Of a stretch of DNA of 64,000 nt, positions 8,664 through 30,298 are shown one piece after another. The position numbers and the translations under genes are program-made. The notes beneath the pieces were generated by a model that saw only the letters and a program-made list of their open reading frames with translations, had not been told where the DNA came from and made no database searches. This DNA comes from Candidatus Falkowbacteria bacterium (GTDB taxonomy: Bacteria > Patescibacteriota > Patescibacteriia > Patescibacteriales > UBA12075), in assembly GCA_003514005.1 (NCBI GenBank), contig DOSJ01000022.1:13804-77803 (forward strand), given 5' to 3'. Numbering within the stretch: position 1 is the first letter of the stretch; each line of letters begins with the position of its first letter.

Positions 8664-10340
8664 TTAATAAACCAATTTTAACAAACCGTACATCGCCATT
8701 ATCTGAGCGAGTGGAACAGTTTCTTTTGGAAAAAATCCATTGGTTTCAATCTCTTTAAAATATTTATCATGGATTTTTATTTTCTCAGCTAAAACTTTTA
8801 CTATTTCTATCGGATTTCCCTTGTCTTTAAAATACAGATCTTCTTCATAGCTTTTTTGAAGATTCTGGCGCTTACTGATTTCATCTACAAATTTTTTATA
8901 AATACTGAACCTGGGAAAATTTTGTGACAAGATTTTTTCTACGATAGGCAATTCTTTCTTTTTTAAAATTTTTACTTTATGATTATCACCTGTCCCAAAA
9001 AATACACCCACATACCATGTTTTGGCGACATCTTGGTCTTTATTCTCCGGATGATAATTCATCAAGTCAACAGTCATATTTCCCAACTTCAATGGGTGTC
9101 TTCTAAAACGAGCATTTATATTTCGTTTTCGCGGATTATCAAACTTATTTTCTTTAAATGTGTTGAGATTATTTACCTTTTTGTAATTATTTGATAATTT
9201 TGAAAAATCTATCCTGTCATGTTTGATCTCCGATATCTGCATTTTTCTCCTGATTGCCTTTGCAAGAGCACTGCCCATATGCGGACAAACTGCGTTTCCA
9301 ATCTGTTTCCATTTAACCCCTTCCGATCCTACAAACTGATATACATAAGGAAACCCCATTAAACAAGCGATTTCTCTTATAGTTGGTGATCTATATTCAC
9401 CATCACCTTTTCTGTCGTATTCAGATCGATAAATTAATGCTTCTCTTGAGCTGGCGGACTTAGTCGCTAGAATGGTCCTGCTTGGCCTGTCTTCATTTTC
9501 AGGAAAAGACATTCGACCCATAAATGGATGGTTTGTTTTTAAATAATCGGCTTTTTCCCACTCGATTTTATATATACCTGAATCATAAAAGTGATCGGAT
9601 ATTTTTTCAGTCTCCAGGGCTATGCTAGGATAATTAGGGTCTTTCCAAACCTTTTTTTTATTAGTTTCATTCGGTTTAGGCATTTTACTTTTAATTTCTC
9701 GCAATTTAACATATTCCACTTGGGTGATTAACGGTTCTAAAAATTCATTTGTAGCTACCCATTCACCCGCAACAAACCTTTTCCTTCCCTGTGGCGCACC
9801 GAAGTCTCTTGCATTATGTATCGCACCGTTTGTAGTTACGGCTATGTCATCCGGTCTCATTTCATTTTCCAGTGCCCATTCCTTAAGGTTTAGATCCATG
9901 AAGCTGTATTGAATTTTTACGTGCGGCCTTGATTGTGGCACATTTTCCATGTACCATGCTTTCAGTACAGATTTTTTTTCATGCTTTTTTACCGCAACAA
10001 CCCTTAGATAAGTTTCAATCAACCTTATACCGTTTGTCTTGTCCGCTTTTCCTGCCTTGTTTGACATAGAGAATGAAACACAAGACGGACTTCCGACTAA
10101 AACTTCTGCCTTCGGCATCTTATTGATTTCAGAAACATCACCCGACGATTTCCCCCAAAAATCTAAAACGTTTTTCGTTGTGTCGTTTAATCCATGATTT
10201 AAATTGTGTGTGTCAATCGCCGGTTGCCAATAATCAAGCCCCATTATCACGTCAAATCCTTGTTGCCTAAATCCTTCAGAAAAACCACCTGCTCCGCAAA
10301 AAAAATCAATAACTCTCAGTTTGGTTATTTTATTTTTCAT
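8664..10340 (-). CDS. DNA (cytosine-5)-methyltransferase with about 200-aa C-terminal extension
   Basis: Motif I FFCGAGGFS, motif IV GSPSCVSFS (PC-like), motif VI ENV, motif VIII QGRKR, motif IX REIACLMGFP, motif X QIGNAV. An extra about 200 aa lies after motif X. Confidence 0.9.
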   Translation of the reverse strand: MKNKITKLRVIDFFCGAGGFSEGFRQQGFDVIMGLDYWQPAIDTHNLNHGLNDTTKNVLDFWGKSSGDVSEINKMPKAEVLVGSPSCVSFSMSNKAGKADKTNGIRLIETYLRVVAVKKHEKKSVLKAWYMENVPQSRPHVKIQYSFMDLNLKEWALENEMRPDDIAVTTNGAIHNARDFGAPQGRKRFVAGEWVATNEFLEPLITQVEYVKLREIKSKMPKPNETNKKKVWKDPNYPSIALETEKISDHFYDSGIYKIEWEKADYLKTNHPFMGRMSFPENEDRPSRTILATKSASSREALIYRSEYDRKGDGEYRSPTIREIACLMGFPYVYQFVGSEGVKWKQIGNAVCPHMGSALAKAIRRKMQISEIKHDRIDFSKLSNNYKKVNNLNTFKENKFDNPRKRNINARFRRHPLKLGNMTVDLMNYHPENKDQDVAKTWYVGVFFGTGDNHKVKILKKKELPIVEKILSQNFPRFSIYKKFVDEISKRQNLQKSYEEDLYFKDKGNPIEIVKVLAEKIKIHDKYFKEIETNGFFPKETVPLAQIMAMYGLLKLVY

Positions 10341-17051: not shown

Positions 17052-17987
17052 CTAATCTTCTTCTTCATAATAATAAGAGTAGTCTATTCCTTTCATAAAC
17101 ATTTCACGATTGTTAATTTTATTAGTCAGAGCTTTTTTAAATAAATTTTTTATTTTTATACTATTTCCGGAGCTATGTTTCATTGCATTTATATAATCTT
17201 TTTTACCTATTTTACTCCAATCCACACATTTTTTAAGACGTTTTTTTAGTATTAAATCAAGCCAAATACGAGTACTTCTTCCATTGCCCTCCATAAAAGG
17301 ATGAGCGACATTCATTTCTACATATTTATCGACAATTTGTACGAAATTATTTTCCGGCATCTGTTCAATTTGTTTGAGCGTGTTTTCCAAATACTGTGCC
17401 ATCGCAAATTGAAAACCATTTTTTGAAATATTTTTCTGTCGGATTTTTCCCGCAAAATTATACAAACCGCCAAATAAATAAGCATGAATTTGTTGCAGGC
17501 CTTTGCTTGTGCCAACTTCAATGCTATCAATAAGAGAACTTTCAAACAAAGCGTAAGCTTTGGTTTTGCTTTTTCCATCGATGCTCTCATCGCTGTATGT
17601 AAACCAGTCAATAAATCGATTAGCTTTAGTCCCTGGGAATGTTTTGCCTAGGGCAATAATCCCGTCATGGTCCAACATATCAGTCAGATATCGTTTCCCA
17701 TCACTTGCCAAAAGTTTCAGTTGGGTAGTAGCACTAACCACCTGATTGTTCTCTTTCTTGAGCTTGGCTTTGAGATATTTCCAATAGTTGCGGGTTTTAG
17801 CGTAATCATTCTGGTTTGTGAGAACGGCGATGATGTCTAATACGCTAAACCACCATTTATTATTTTTTTCATCCCAAACGGCACGAACTTCTCGATCGTT
17901 AAAAAAACGAATTGAAATTTTATGATTCATATTTTTTAATAGTTTAAAAGTAGTATATCTGAATTTCCGACATACCCAATATACCAT
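17052..17987 (-). CDS. Bro-N domain / Fic (Fido) domain fusion protein
   Basis: N-terminal Bro-N-like region ([29 protein letters not shown]). C-terminal Fic motif [12 protein letters not shown] (HPFx[DE]GNGR). Confidence 0.75.
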
Positions 17988-25613: not shown

Positions 25614-26138
25614 TTACAATTTATTACTTTTATTATATTTATTAGCGAAGGCGAGAATCTCATTCATCAAGCCATCGGATGTCTTATAATTTTTTATATC
25701 CAAGGGATCTATCCAAATATAATCCGTATTTTCATCGCTTAAAACAATCTCGCCGCCAGCATAGTCACAAATAAATGTAATTCCGACTTTAAATTCATTT
25801 TTCTCATTTTCAAATGAATAAACATTAAATGGTTCACGCACCTTGACCGACAAATTAGTTTCTTCTTGTATTTCTCGATGTAAAGCCGATTGCGGATTTT
25901 CTTTTTCTTTCATGCCGCCACCGACCGTCTCCCAATAACCAGGCCAAAAACTATCCTGCTCGCTTCTTTTTACGAGTAAAATTTTACCGTCATTGTTTGT
26001 TATTATGCCCTTGACTGTTATTTTGCAATACATATAATTATCACTGTTATAATAATCAAATTTTAGCAAATTAAATTCGAACTCGCAAACTTTTGTATCA
26101 AAAAAATCACAACTTGCTTTTGTTGTGATTTTTTTCAT
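25614..26138 (-). CDS. NUDIX hydrolase
   Basis: Nudix box GGGMKEKENPQSALHREIQEETNL. Confidence 0.7.
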   Translation of the reverse strand: MKKITTKASCDFFDTKVCEFEFNLLKFDYYNSDNYMYCKITVKGIITNNDGKILLVKRSEQDSFWPGYWETVGGGMKEKENPQSALHREIQEETNLSVKVREPFNVYSFENEKNEFKVGITFICDYAGGEIVLSDENTDYIWIDPLDIKNYKTSDGLMNEILAFANKYNKSNKL

Positions 26139-26211
26139 GCACAGGATGCACGAATCAAGCCCATGCAGGAGTTTTTAAAAACCCCCGTACTACCCTTATG
26201 CTAATCCCGAC
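26139..26211 (-). pseudogene. degenerate tRNA-Trp-derived copy (anticodon loop TTTTAAA, nominal anticodon UUA)
   Basis: About 79% identical to the tRNA-Trp at 27041-27111 on the same strand. Mismatches at acceptor 1:72, T-loop changed to CTTGATT and T-stem unpaired, so likely a pseudogene. Confidence 0.4.
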
Positions 26212-26320
26212 CACCTTCCGACACAGCCAGAGCTTCTTGCCTACCAGCAGACAGGTTATTATACAAATTAAAACGGTAACAAATCTTTCGAAATGCCACC
26301 GTTTGAAATGCAAGTTATTG

Positions 26321-26878
26321 TTATGTCATGCCAAAGATAATTTTTTCATGACCTGGCCAAAGATAATCATCGTTGACATACGTTGTTCTCAACAACACCA
26401 TATGACCCCAGTTTTCTAATCTAAATAAATCCGGACATTGAAAAAGATCTTTGTCTTTTTTCACCAGTATAGATACTTGATCGTGTACCGGCTGATCCTG
26501 ATATTGCAGTCTAAGTTGCGGACCAGCTTCAACTTCAACTGGTAAACCACCAATTTTTCCTATACTTTCGAGGAGCTCGATATGAGTTCCTCTTTGACCG
26601 ATAATTTGCTCTACAGTCATCATGCAAAGATTTTTTAAAACTACCTTATTGTCCTGATTAAATTGTTTAAGTTTTAAAAAATGCTCCATATAGACTGAAT
26701 AACTCCATGTTTTTTGTATTGTTTTATTGGCTTCATCGATGTTAGGACAAAGTAGCGTTAAAAAATCACTCAAAGGGCCTCTACAATCGCATTCGATTTT
26801 TGCTAGGGCGCCCAAGAGATCCCTGCTGTTCGAATTGATTAATTCAATTGTTTTCCATATTTTTAAATTTTTAATCAC
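26321..26878 (-). CDS. hypothetical protein between the two tRNA-Trp-like sequences
   Basis: 185-aa ORF preceded by a strong sigma70-like promoter (CTTGACA-17-TATATA). No recognised domain. Confidence 0.35.
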   Translation of the reverse strand: MIKNLKIWKTIELINSNSRDLLGALAKIECDCRGPLSDFLTLLCPNIDEANKTIQKTWSYSVYMEHFLKLKQFNQDNKVVLKNLCMMTVEQIIGQRGTHIELLESIGKIGGLPVEVEAGPQLRLQYQDQPVHDQVSILVKKDKDLFQCPDLFRLENWGHMVLLRTTYVNDDYLWPGHEKIIFGMT

Positions 26879-26930
26879 GTTTCTTCTCCTTTTTCAAAAT
26901 ATATATTTAAGAGCAAAAAACAAATATTTT

Positions 26931-26968
26931 ATATATACTATATAGCATATAAGCTATATTTTGTCAAG
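26931..26968 (-). promoter_or_regulatory. sigma70-like promoter (extended -35 CTTGACAAAAT, -10 TATATA)
   Basis: Reverse complement reads CTTGACA-17nt-TATATA about 60 nt upstream of the ATG at 26878. Confidence 0.5.
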
Positions 26969-27040
26969 TCTATTGACAAGGTTCGATTTCCTTCCTCCCA
27001 CACCAAAAATCACAGCTAATATTAGCCGTGATTATTCTCG

Positions 27041-27111
27041 CACGGGATGTAGGAATCGAACCCACGCTAGAGGTTTTGGAAACCCCTGTACTACCATTAT
27101 ACTAATCCCGC
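27041..27111 (-). tRNA. trnW: tRNA-Trp (anticodon CCA)
   Basis: Reverse complement folds as a cloverleaf: acceptor GCGGGAT/ATCCCGT, D-arm GTAT-AATGGTA-GTAC, anticodon arm GGGGT-TTCCAAA-ACCTC, T-arm GTGGG-TTCGATT-CCTAC. CCA 3' end not encoded. Confidence 0.8.
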
Positions 27112-27134
27112 CCCGCCCTTCGCGAAGGGCGGGG
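27111..27134. repeat. GC-rich perfect palindrome CCCCGCCCTT-CGCG-AAGGGCGGGG abutting tRNA-Trp 5' end
   Basis: 10-bp stem with 4-nt loop. Only strongly GC-rich element in this AT-rich region. Confidence 0.85.
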
Positions 27135-27188
27135 CTGGCCCCGGTCCGACGCAATAAAGGTTTACCCCGCCCCTCACGAGGAGCTGGG

Positions 27189-27467
27189 TTATTTTATTTT
27201 TAATCTTTTTAATAATCCTACGTATGCTGAACCGAATTGTTTTAGTTTTTTTTCTCTCTCAAGGGCTAAATTATTAGTCTGATAAGATTCGTAATATATT
27301 AATTCTAGTGGTCTTCTATGTTTTGTTGATTCAACTAGTCCTTGTTGATGCTGAGCAAATCGCCTAGACAAGTCAGAACTATATCCAATATAAAACTTTT
27401 TATCTCTTCCACTGTGTAATAAATAAACATAATACATAGGAATACCATCTAATTTCAAATATCCCAT
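27189..27467 (-). CDS. GIY-YIG nuclease family protein
   Basis: YYVYLLHS...KFYIGYSSDLSRRFAQH matches the GIY...YIG motif pair in a 92-aa protein. Confidence 0.7.
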   Translation of the reverse strand: MGYLKLDGIPMYYVYLLHSGRDKKFYIGYSSDLSRRFAQHQQGLVESTKHRRPLELIYYESYQTNNLALEREKKLKQFGSAYVGLLKRLKIK

Positions 27468-27499
27468 TCCTATTCCCTAAGTACCTATGCCCTAATTAC

Positions 27500-27889
27500 C
27501 TACTCGCCTATCTTCTCCAAAATATCCGGTGTCTTTTTCAAAATATATTCAAAACGCTCAATTGATTTTCCACTCACTTCATCAAAGAGCGGTGTACCGT
27601 CGGTATAAAAAGTATCCATCGCATCACCATAGCGATTTAGATTGTTATCAGTCAACCATTTCTCGATTTTTTCTTTTTGCTCAGTTGTCAAATCCTCAGC
27701 TCCAGGTGGTGCAACATTAAAACTATTATTTTTGGATTTTGTTGTTGATTCGGTTTCCTGTGAATTTGTTTCCGTATTCGTGCCATCAAAAAAAATCTCA
27801 CCAACCCTTTGATCAAGCCACTTTAATTTTGTGCAACCGGAAACAGAAATCATTAAAATCAAAGCAAATATAAAACGACCAATTTTCAT
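27500..27889 (-). CDS. small lipoprotein
   Basis: Lipobox ISVSGC after an N-terminal signal peptide. Confidence 0.4.
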   Translation of the reverse strand: MKIGRFIFALILMISVSGCTKLKWLDQRVGEIFFDGTNTETNSQETESTTKSKNNSFNVAPPGAEDLTTEQKEKIEKWLTDNNLNRYGDAMDTFYTDGTPLFDEVSGKSIERFEYILKKTPDILEKIGE

Positions 27890-29272: not shown

Positions 29273-29282
29273 ATTTTTAGGA

Positions 29283-29440
29283 TGGTAGGACTGTAGGCTT
29301 GTAGGCTAGTAGCCTAAGCAAAAAAAATCGTACCAAAAAATTAATTAAAAAATAAAAAAAATAAAACACATCCAACAAACTACCAGCCCACAATCCTACC
29401 CGCCTACAAGCCTACTAGCCTACAAGCCTACCTGCCTACC
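29283..29440. repeat. long inverted repeat of GTAGGCT heptad-like units flanking an A-rich spacer
   Basis: GTAGGCTTGTAGGCTAGTAGGCT at about 29294-29316 and its reverse complement AGCCTACTAGCCTACAAGCCTAC at about 29411-29433, extended by further imperfect CCTAC/GTAGG units. Confidence 0.8.
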
Positions 29441-29443
29441 AGC

Positions 29444-30298
29444 CTAACTCTGACACCCCCCACAATAACTAGTCCCTCTCTGTGTCACTTTTATCTTCTG
29501 AATAATCGCCCCACACCTCCGACACTCCTCTCCTTTCCGTCCATAAACATTCAACATCTTCACAAACTCACCTTTGTTGCCACTCGCATCCACATAATTA
29601 TTAAAAGTCGTACCGCGATTTTGAATCGCTTTTTGTAATACTTGTTTAATGCTCTTGGCAAGCTTTTTTATTTCTATATCGCTTAAGCTAAAAGCCGGAC
29701 GGACGGGACGAATGCCAGCGAGGAACAACGCTTCATCTGCGTAAATATTGCCGATTCCGGCGATTAAGTTTTGGTTTAAAAGCAAAGTCTTAATACTGGC
29801 AGTTTTTGTGCGGATGAAACTTTTTAAGTATTTAAAATCAATCTCCATAGCTTCCAGTCCGAAGTTACCAGTAATTTTTTCAAGCTCATCAATCTCTACA
29901 ATCTGCAAATAACCAAATGTACGCAAATCATTAAACAACAACTTGCTTTTATCAGCAAAACTTATCACAACACGCGTATGCGGATTGGGCTTACAAGCAA
30001 CTTGATTTTTATCACTATGTCCGCCGGCAATAATATTATCTTTTTTGCAATACACCAACTGCCCGGTCATACGCAGATGAATTAAAAGAAAATGTTTTTT
30101 ATCTGCCAACCAAAAAATAATCAGCTTACCCCGCCGTTCAATCTGGATAATTTTATTATACTGCAAAACAGTTAAAAAGTCATTAAACTTACCTTTAACA
30201 ATTCTTTTCAACAAAACCTCAACCTGAACTATTTTTTTACCAATAATCCTATCACGCAAATCGCGCACTATGGTTTCAACTTCAGGAAGCTCTGGCAT
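29444..30298 (-). CDS. mutM: formamidopyrimidine-DNA glycosylase (Fpg/Nei family)
   Basis: N-terminal MPELPEVE catalytic Pro2/Glu3. C-terminal zinc finger CRRCG...CGGCQ. Confidence 0.85.
   Translation of the reverse strand: MPELPEVETIVRDLRDRIIGKKIVQVEVLLKRIVKGKFNDFLTVLQYNKIIQIERRGKLIIFWLADKKHFLLIHLRMTGQLVYCKKDNIIAGGHSDKNQVACKPNPHTRVVISFADKSKLLFNDLRTFGYLQIVEIDELEKITGNFGLEAMEIDFKYLKSFIRTKTASIKTLLLNQNLIAGIGNIYADEALFLAGIRPVRPAFSLSDIEIKKLAKSIKQVLQKAIQNRGTTFNNYVDASGNKGEFVKMLNVYGRKGEECRRCGAIIQKIKVTQRGTSYCGGCQS

Follow-up and report, generated by a model that had tools for sequence, protein, structure and literature searches.

How did the tRNA-Trp gene of a Candidatus Falkowbacteria bacterium come to be followed by a degenerate copy of itself, and what is that copy? 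Both sequences lie in a 64-kb stretch of contig DOSJ01000022.1 (here called the window; GC content, 37%) from this member of the Candidate Phyla Radiation (CPR), where they enclose a gene for a protein of 185 amino acids (aa) and stand beside a perfect GC-rich palindrome and a gene for a small GIY-YIG nuclease (Table 1). An earlier note on this DNA had described the arrangement, had called the copy a potential suppressor-like tRNA, and had proposed as its origin either a small element that inserted at tRNA-Trp and duplicated its target or GIY-YIG-mediated gene conversion. Taken alone, the tRNA-like pair is an ordinary gene with its pseudogene; the special feature is its setting. By comparison of sequences, a GIY-YIG gene directly upstream of tRNA-Trp, together with the palindrome and broken tRNA-Trp copies, is a recurring module of Patescibacteria.

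The two tRNA-like sequences, each of about 72 nucleotides (nt), align without gaps at 57 of 72 positions (79.2%) in the same minus-strand orientation, as the earlier note had estimated; a gap of 829 nt separates them (901 nt from start to start), and within the window the tRNA part alone is detected as a repeat by blastn at E = 4e-14. The copy that had been judged a good tRNA-Trp is one by every measure in Table 1, and it is the sole tRNA that ARAGORN calls in the whole window, where Rfam at gathering thresholds likewise reports nothing besides it. In the other copy, alignment confirmed both the change of the anticodon from CCA to TTA and the disruption of the T-loop (TTCGATT to CTTGATT), in which T54 and C56 are mutated. 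Two of the five T-stem pairs are broken, and the anticodon arm adopts a new fold, a 9-bp hairpin with a 4-nt loop. Relative to the intact cloverleaf, seven pairs are changed. Five of 21 no longer form, without any compensating change; the 16 pairs kept compare with 14.9 ± 1.7 expected from 15 random substitutions, and the cloverleaf energy is -0.3 kcal/mol, versus -20.5 kcal/mol for the intact gene. The adjacent tRNA-Trp gene thus has a pseudogene at 26139-26210, a dead duplicate whose tRNA part has drifted as unconstrained DNA.

These results speak against the ochre-suppressor tRNA that the copy had been suggested to be. ARAGORN makes no call on it at -ps60 (60% of threshold), a setting at which random sequence is already called, and the Rfam tRNA model RF00005 has no match to it at E ≤ 10. 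Its TTA "anticodon" amounts to two C-to-T changes among the 15 substitutions. A check for avoidance of TAA, which had been proposed, gave the opposite picture: TAA is the main stop codon in the window, ending 31 of 51 nonoverlapping open reading frames (ORFs) of at least 150 aa. TAA is thus used too freely for a genome adapted to ochre read-through, and we reject the suppressor reading on this ground as well as on the ARAGORN, Rfam, and cloverleaf results. In relatives (L017 to L021 and L027; L-numbers, L001 to L038, label the compared contigs and loci), tRNA-Trp is a single gene with covarying T-stems, and it is 65 to 72 of 72 positions (90 to 100%) identical to that of the window, with a complete match (72/72) in L018, in genomes whose 129-aa protein, encoded at the same locus, is merely about 40 to 56% identical. 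The pseudo-tRNA matches the tRNA-Trp of any relative at no more than 53 to 57 of 72 positions.

The duplication extends past the tRNA on both sides: the directly repeated block measures about 121 nt and adds the terminator hairpin on the 3' side and about 14 nt on the 5' side. Within the window, blastn finds this extended block at E = 4e-17. Its 5' homology limit lies at most 3 nt from the center of the palindrome, an alignment end too short for significance by itself, and local alignment detected no significant homology beyond about 14 nt upstream of the block. On the 3' side, the hairpin of the terminator copy has been kept while the tRNA part decayed: a perfect 8-bp stem is retained, including one double change from G-C to A-T, and the copy folds at -12.4 kcal/mol, versus -4.3 ± 2.8 kcal/mol under random decay by an equal number of changes (P of about 0.01).

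Loci for comparison came from a tRNA-Trp pattern scan of species-representative genomes, which yielded five Patescibacteria loci, and further from metagenome loci anchored on the 129-aa protein and from the loci of GIY-YIG homologues. The module comparison covers eight lineages: the window, L017, L022/L026, L028, L029, L030-L033, L034-L037 (Collierbacteria), and L038 (Magasanikbacteria). The order rpmG/L33, 129-aa gene, GIY-YIG gene where present, and tRNA-Trp is kept in L017, L018, L021, L022, L026, L027, and L028; L029, L030, and L038 have modified forms of the neighborhood, with rpmG/L33 in L029 and L038 and with Fpg and a 123-aa gene in L030. In L022/L026, L028, L029, L030-L033, L034-L037, and L038, the GIY-YIG gene ends 3 to 10 nt upstream of tRNA-Trp, and a decayed remnant holds this place in L017. 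Presence of the gene is sporadic: it is intact in the window, L022/L026, L028 to L030, L034, and L038, is a pseudogene in L017, and is absent from L018 to L021 and L027. Since five of these lineages (L028, L029, L030-L033, L034-L037, and L038) were retrieved by the GIY-YIG protein alone, its linkage to tRNA-Trp is not a sampling artifact. The palindrome and the GIY-YIG gene that the earlier note had placed beside the intact tRNA are both there, and their link to the duplication is not a chance of one genome, as the three components recur in the seven other lineages.

The nuclease gene probably starts at 27437, which gives a protein of 82 aa, and in L001 it is called at that length. We found 941 homologues, mostly of 79 to 85 aa, from Patescibacteria. 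The YVY/YIG, Arg, and Glu motifs of the GIY-YIG domain are conserved in seven lineages.

A 24-mer identical to the palindrome adjoins the GIY-YIG gene and tRNA-Trp in L022, L026, L029, L030, and L038. The match is 24/24 in five lineages whose GIY-YIG DNA is 61 to 77% identical and whose tRNA-Trp is 67 to 90% identical, which makes the palindrome the best-conserved element of the locus. Compensated variants occur in L028, where the palindrome is doubly compensated, and in the repeat arrays described below; the hairpin of L034 is related but differently placed. Among eight variants, four of 10 stem pairs show double changes, 92.5% of cells pair, and none of 500 shuffles reaches the observed covariation score, in a sample that is small and made up of related sequences. 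Within the window, the palindrome and its degenerate neighbor occur at 27111-27188 only, and a comparison with viral contigs gave no match. The palindrome, a 30-nt spacer, and the neighboring hairpin form a GC-rich element of 77 nt (GC fraction of 0.60, versus a window mean of 0.37). In the other lineages no such element lies between GIY-YIG and tRNA, and the GIY-YIG gene, or its remnant in L017, runs to within 3 to 10 nt of the tRNA; the element at that position is therefore particular to the lineage of the window. L028 has a comparable two-hairpin layout, but upstream of its GIY-YIG gene. The palindrome could mark a fragile site, serve as a recognition site or as a form of the target that escapes cleavage, or act on the nuclease gene as an operator or 5' untranslated hairpin.

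Outside the window, all six lineages with an intact nuclease gene carry a pseudo-tRNA-Trp 20 to 30 nt upstream of the GIY-YIG start. The 5' part of this pseudo-tRNA matches the lineage's own tRNA-Trp at 36 of 36 positions in L038, 35 of 36 in L022, 22 of 22 in L030, and 21 of 21 in L034. In five of the six (not L034), its center, from about position 38 to about position 55, up to the T-loop, is replaced by a 24-nt palindrome, after which come CGATTCC and remnants of the 3' end. The upstream palindrome reads exactly CCCCGCCCTTCGCGAAGGGCGGGG in L022/L026, L030, and L038; in L029 it has one mismatch upstream and is exact in the array. Head-to-tail arrays of 70- to 71-nt units directly follow the tRNA in L022/L026 and L029, each unit consisting of a decayed 5' half, GGTCTCCAA, the palindrome, and the tRNA 3' end (3.4 copies at 90% match in Tandem Repeats Finder). 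L022 and L026, although near-identical strains, have different arrays. One L026 unit bears a tRNA-Trp 3' end of the window type, foreign to the L026 genome, and the upstream pseudo-tRNA of L029 is of an L038-like type, not its own. We also considered whether the units of pseudo-tRNA and palindrome might be tRNAs bearing a long extra arm and rejected this, as they reach 27.8 bits in L022 (just below the Rfam threshold) and 14 bits in L038, with folds that are inconsistent between lineages. A literature search turned up no account of such a combination of GIY-YIG gene, tRNA-Trp, and palindrome in CPR bacteria, and the module is apparently undescribed so far.

Other repeats were seen at the same loci. 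Past the 71-nt array of L022 (2665-2860), a tRNA-Trp 3' part of the window type appears twice more, and both times a GC-rich structured insertion of 50 to 70 nt breaks it within or beside the T-loop; the ends of one insertion resemble the palindrome arms (CCTGCCTCG...CGAAGGCGGG). In L026 (4480-5080), the Fpg ORF is 417 aa long, versus about 284, and contains two in-frame insertions of GC-rich hairpin-forming repeats (e.g., CCCCCGCCGCGGCGGGGG and CTCCCCTTTACAAGGGGAG), which resemble the palindromic elements found in Rickettsia protein-coding genes. Inverted arrays made of short motifs that are specific to a lineage and recur about every 8 nt (GTAGGCnn in the window, AGCTnTnA in L029, CCAATnAA in L030, and TGACAATT in L018 to L020) stand between genes, often just upstream of the pseudo-tRNA/GIY-YIG/tRNA-Trp unit. 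They occur in the window at 29277-29315 and 29409-29447, at 27440-27500, and at 26233-26248, in L029 at 2828-2915, in L030 at 2850-2930, and upstream of tRNA-Trp in L018 to L020; the pair at window 29277-29447 has arms of 39 nt that are 87% complementary and 93 nt apart.

We think it probable, though well short of certain, that the pseudogene derives from a segmental duplication driven by breaks or recombination at the nuclease/palindrome module, with the 185-aa cassette lying between the copies. DNA breaks, or recombination provoked by hairpins, would repeatedly yield segmental duplications of tRNA-Trp at the module. The small GIY-YIG nuclease is the most plausible maker of such breaks and may act on T-arm or palindrome DNA, by analogy with the phage nuclease SegB, which acts on tRNA T-arm DNA. 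A SegB-like model would place cleavage in or near GGTTCGATTCC and would make a palindrome-containing copy resistant. As one functional copy suffices, the others would decay or be lost, and the 185-aa cassette would have been captured between two such copies. Of the origins proposed earlier, we infer that GIY-YIG-mediated conversion or duplication is the best lead. A broader proposal is possible but tentative, and we lean against it: that the GIY-YIG gene, the palindrome, and the hairpin-interrupted tRNA-Trp copy make up a new selfish or domesticated cassette at tRNA-Trp, widespread in Patescibacteria and a cellular counterpart of SegB. In such a cassette, the nuclease, acting on the T-arm or palindrome, would drive duplication, arrays, and transfer between lineages, the palindrome would serve as a recognition, immunity, or regulatory site, and the pair in the window would be a footprint.

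Several observations weigh against a duplication driven by the module. The copy in the window is full length and has no palindrome in its center, unlike the copies of the relatives, and its homology to the palindrome half rests on about 12 to 14 nt with gaps. In the window the palindrome lies between the GIY-YIG gene and the tRNA (GIY-YIG, 77-nt GC-rich element, tRNA-Trp, terminator, 185-aa cassette, decayed block, Nudix gene), while in other lineages it is upstream of the GIY-YIG gene. The 82-aa protein is a catalytic domain alone, a single domain over about its whole length, without the DNA-binding domains of Seg enzymes or I-TevI. These proteins are syntenic and share 50 to 76% amino acid identity, which would suit a domesticated housekeeping protein no less than a selfish one; the GIY-YIG protein may therefore be domesticated. 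The generality of the module rests on eight lineages. Finally, all contigs with the 185-aa gene come from one species and have identical DNA (L010 deviates solely by a deletion in the Nudix gene), so they offer no intermediate state and no polymorphism by which the event could be dated or oriented. None of these contigs is a divergent relative with the same tandem arrangement.

The plainest alternative is a tandem duplication of tRNA-Trp and its terminator that arose by slippage or unequal crossing-over, with no part played by the GIY-YIG gene or the palindrome, and was followed by neutral decay and by independent insertion of the 185-aa cassette. The copy does behave as neutral DNA, tRNA pseudogenes and duplications are common, and homology at the palindrome edge is weak; in addition, the DNA downstream of tRNA-Trp varies in every relative, where it encodes restriction-modification methylases, a SNF2 helicase, or an NYN protein (L017, L019, and L020). 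Such an origin gives no account of why this one place bears tRNA-Trp duplicates, partial or complete, in six or more further lineages, always along with the same palindrome and GIY-YIG gene, nor of the array differences between the near-identical L022 and L026, and we regard it as rather unlikely. The idea that the copy is an expressed functional RNA, whether an ochre suppressor or a tRNA-like element in the processing or regulation of neighboring mRNAs, draws on its position between a terminator-like hairpin and the retained terminator, by which it could be transcribed, on the strong structure of 26095-26325 (z = -5.1), and on UUA being formally an ochre anticodon. It is contradicted by the missing match to any tRNA model, the mutated T54 and C56, the lost T-stem, the refolded anticodon arm, the substitutions without structural compensation, and the prevalence of TAA stops. 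The copy also has no homologue outside this one species, and a function of this kind seems to us extremely improbable.

Integration of the Campbell type or at a specific site would have brought the 185-aa cassette into the tRNA-Trp region together with a tRNA-Trp-like attachment segment that the cassette carried and would have left one repeat at each end. The layout of direct repeat, self-contained cassette, and direct repeat fits, as does the same repeat-cassette-repeat layout around the GIY-YIG gene of relatives, where some pseudo-tRNA parts are of a foreign-lineage type; tRNA genes are classic integration sites, and one distant 185-aa homologue lies beside the end of an IS3-like transposase gene as read from its translation. 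The small inserting element of the earlier note nevertheless found little to sustain it. Neither the genes called in the 10 kb to each side nor the further ORFs scanned downstream included an integrase or recombinase. An att repeat would be a short exact core, but here the whole tRNA and its terminator are repeated, at 79% identity; the differences are spread evenly over both halves, so that no recombinant junction is visible. The intact tRNA-Trp is 72/72 identical to that of L018. Nor did the contexts of the three distant 185-aa homologues that we checked contain a tRNA or repeat nearby, and nothing marks the family as a tRNA-seeking mobile element. The empty-site comparison that had been proposed gave a divided answer: L017 to L021 and L027 do have a single tRNA-Trp without the 185-aa gene, but the exact empty site, with tRNA-Trp followed directly by the Nudix gene, was not found among the relatives examined. 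We consider integration improbable, and we continue to favor duplication by breaks or recombination at the module.

TABLE 1 Features of the tRNA-Trp locus (positions in the 64-kb window)
Feature	Positions	Strand	Basis or remark
Duplicated block, intact copy (3' half of palindrome, tRNA, and terminator)	27005-27125	-	Gapped local alignment, repeat search, blastn
Duplicated block, decayed copy	26102-26221	-	Same alignment: 27125-27005 matches 26221-26102
Functional tRNA-Trp(CCA) gene	27040-27111	-	ARAGORN; Rfam tRNA, 61.3 bits; 21/21 stem pairs form
Intrinsic terminator hairpin of tRNA-Trp	27008-27033	-	Terminator scan; folding at -14 kcal/mol
Pseudo-tRNA-Trp, decayed full-length duplicate, anticodon CCA to TTA	26139-26210	-	57/72 identity, blastn
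Retained terminator copy, ATCACAAC...GTTGTGAT then T-run	26102-26136	-	25/35 identical to original
Perfect 24-nt palindrome CCCCGCCCTTCGCGAAGGGCGGGG	27111-27134	.	Last base shared with G1 of tRNA-Trp
Rest of GC-rich 77-nt element: imperfect hairpin 27165-27188 CCCAGCTCCTCGTGAGGGGCGGGG and 30-nt spacer	27135-27188	-	GC, fold
82-aa GIY-YIG nuclease gene	27189-27437	-	Pfam PF01541, E = 2e-16; listed ORF runs to 27467
Synteny anchors: 129-aa lipoprotein-like gene (27500-27889); rpmG/L33 (27937-28092)	27500-28092	-	
Gene for 185-aa protein, uncharacterized family	26321-26878	-	ORF; AAGGAG site 6 nt before GTG start
Promoter-like site of 185-aa gene, TTGACA, 17 nt, TGcTATATA	26939-26967	-	Read directly from sequence
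Terminator-like hairpin of 185-aa gene, then UUUUAAUUU	26262-26304	-	RNA fold of 26095-26325
Nudix hydrolase gene	25614-26033	-	Pfam NUDIX match from residue 41; called ORF 174 aa, 25614-26138

The 185-aa ORF between the copies, to which the earlier note had assigned its own promoter, is present, and the promoter-like site can be read from the DNA; a consensus scan does not list it because the last base of its -10 hexamer is not T. With its own promoter-like site and its own terminator-like hairpin, the ORF forms a self-contained promoter-ORF-terminator unit. The -35 hexamer lies within a 7-5-7 inverted repeat, TTGTCAA-GTCTA-TTGACAA (26962-26980), which resembles an operator or divergent -35 boxes. 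A word-indexed search with the protein returned only itself, and public records name Candidatus Falkowbacteria GW2011_GWC2_38_22 only. An exhaustive search recovered 26 distant homologues (E values from 7e-12 to 1e-3) that have the motifs WKTIxLGTG, GGxLCPAEAGPQLRLQYxDQP, and WVF in common. From an alignment of homologues, AlphaFold2 produced a model with a predicted local distance difference test (pLDDT) score of 82.5; a single-sequence model was useless (pLDDT of 32). The shared motifs of the 26 homologues and the score of the model indicate that the ORF is a real gene. Searches of Pfam, PHROGs, PADLOC, NCBIfam, and Protein Data Bank (PDB) sequences with this protein were all empty, and Foldseek comparison of the model with the PDB gave only weak C-type-lectin-like matches (E of about 0.02; template modeling [TM] scores of 0.3 to 0.4). 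Among the distant homologues (L015, 6001-7592; L012, 1-1100), one has a bAvd gene, which encodes an accessory protein of diversity-generating retroelements, about 500 nt away, and another is the one that adjoins the 3' end of the IS3-like transposase gene, a cut gene for which Pfam was empty. A link of the family to the targets of diversity-generating retroelements is possible.

Beyond the decayed block lies the Nudix gene. Its homologues are 133 to 140 aa long, the Pfam match begins at residue 41 of the called ORF, and a promoter-like site lies at 26088-26060, so that the real start is probably 26033 (M36); the first 35 codons of the called ORF (26034-26138) cross the terminator copy and abut the pseudo-tRNA. 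We tried the Nudix gene as a synteny anchor and discarded it, as its nearest homologues (75% and 72% identical) are in unrelated contexts without a tRNA. Downstream of tRNA-Trp, every lineage carries accessory DNA, a variable region in which we saw no integrase; on this side, at 8664-10340 and 17052-17987, the window encodes a MacB-like ATP-binding cassette exporter, MarR, a Fic/Bro-N protein, a C5 DNA methylase, and metal transporters.

The phage nuclease SegB offers a parallel for the proposed role of the GIY-YIG protein. SegB, a GIY-YIG enzyme encoded in the tRNA gene cluster of phages T4 and T6, recognizes the T-arm motif GGTTCRANTCC and cuts inside tRNA genes (PMC2330249). Its nuclease activity and phage recombination proteins are required for tandem amplification of a tRNA-Tyr/segB segment, and the amplified tRNA-Tyr/segB arrays collapse without selection (PMC13096335). 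At the locus described here, a GIY-YIG nuclease gene likewise stands amid tRNA genes, and its presence, absence, and decay vary among relatives; moreover, the breakpoint of the pseudo-copies falls inside the SegB motif, between GGTT and CGATTCC, with the palindrome coming next and then CGATTCC. The two systems also differ. Seg enzymes are of about 200 aa or more and bear DNA-binding domains in addition to the catalytic domain that makes up nearly all of the 82-aa protein. The locus is cellular and vertically syntenic in Patescibacteria, whereas SegB belongs to phages; its nuclease gene is always beside the Trp isotype, whereas SegB has no isotype preference; and SegB has no counterpart of the ultraconserved palindrome.

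Other known systems share single features with the locus. As in genomic islands bounded by tRNA fragments (attL/attR), the DNA that follows an intact tRNA is accessory, is bordered by a direct tRNA repeat, and differs from relative to relative; unlike in islands, no integrase is seen, the repeat is a whole tRNA with its terminator at 79% identity and not an exact 3' core, and the relatives duplicate the 5' part of the tRNA, on its upstream side. AT-rich reduced genomes are known to harbor selfish GC-rich palindromic elements, among them the Rickettsia palindromic elements, the GC clusters of yeast mitochondria, and hairpins like repetitive extragenic palindromic (REP) sequences and miniature inverted-repeat transposable elements (MITEs). 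These, too, are short GC-rich hairpins of small AT-rich genomes that are inserted into RNA genes, and the hairpin here is kept by compensatory changes; however, it is not dispersed in the window, is identical across lineages, and always occurs with the GIY-YIG gene and tRNA-Trp. The homing endonuclease I-TevI binds an operator in its own promoter that resembles its homing site. In most lineages of the module, a conserved site that stems from the T-arm region of tRNA-Trp, the presumed target, lies 20 to 30 nt upstream of the nuclease start and may be a comparable operator, whereas the palindrome of the window is downstream of the nuclease gene.

The locus carries a hazard for annotation: gene callers extend the Nudix ORF over the terminator of the pseudo-tRNA, and tRNA-like relics can mislead the annotation of recoding. 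Its biological interest lies in a palindrome that is better conserved than the adjoining tRNA gene and is coupled, across distant Patescibacteria, to a minimal GIY-YIG nuclease and broken tRNA-Trp copies. If the nuclease causes the duplications, nuclease-driven amplification of tRNA loci, shown so far only for phage SegB, would extend to cellular genomes with the smallest gene sets known. If that holds, a very abundant orphan family, the 82-aa GIY-YIG proteins, would also gain a function open to test.

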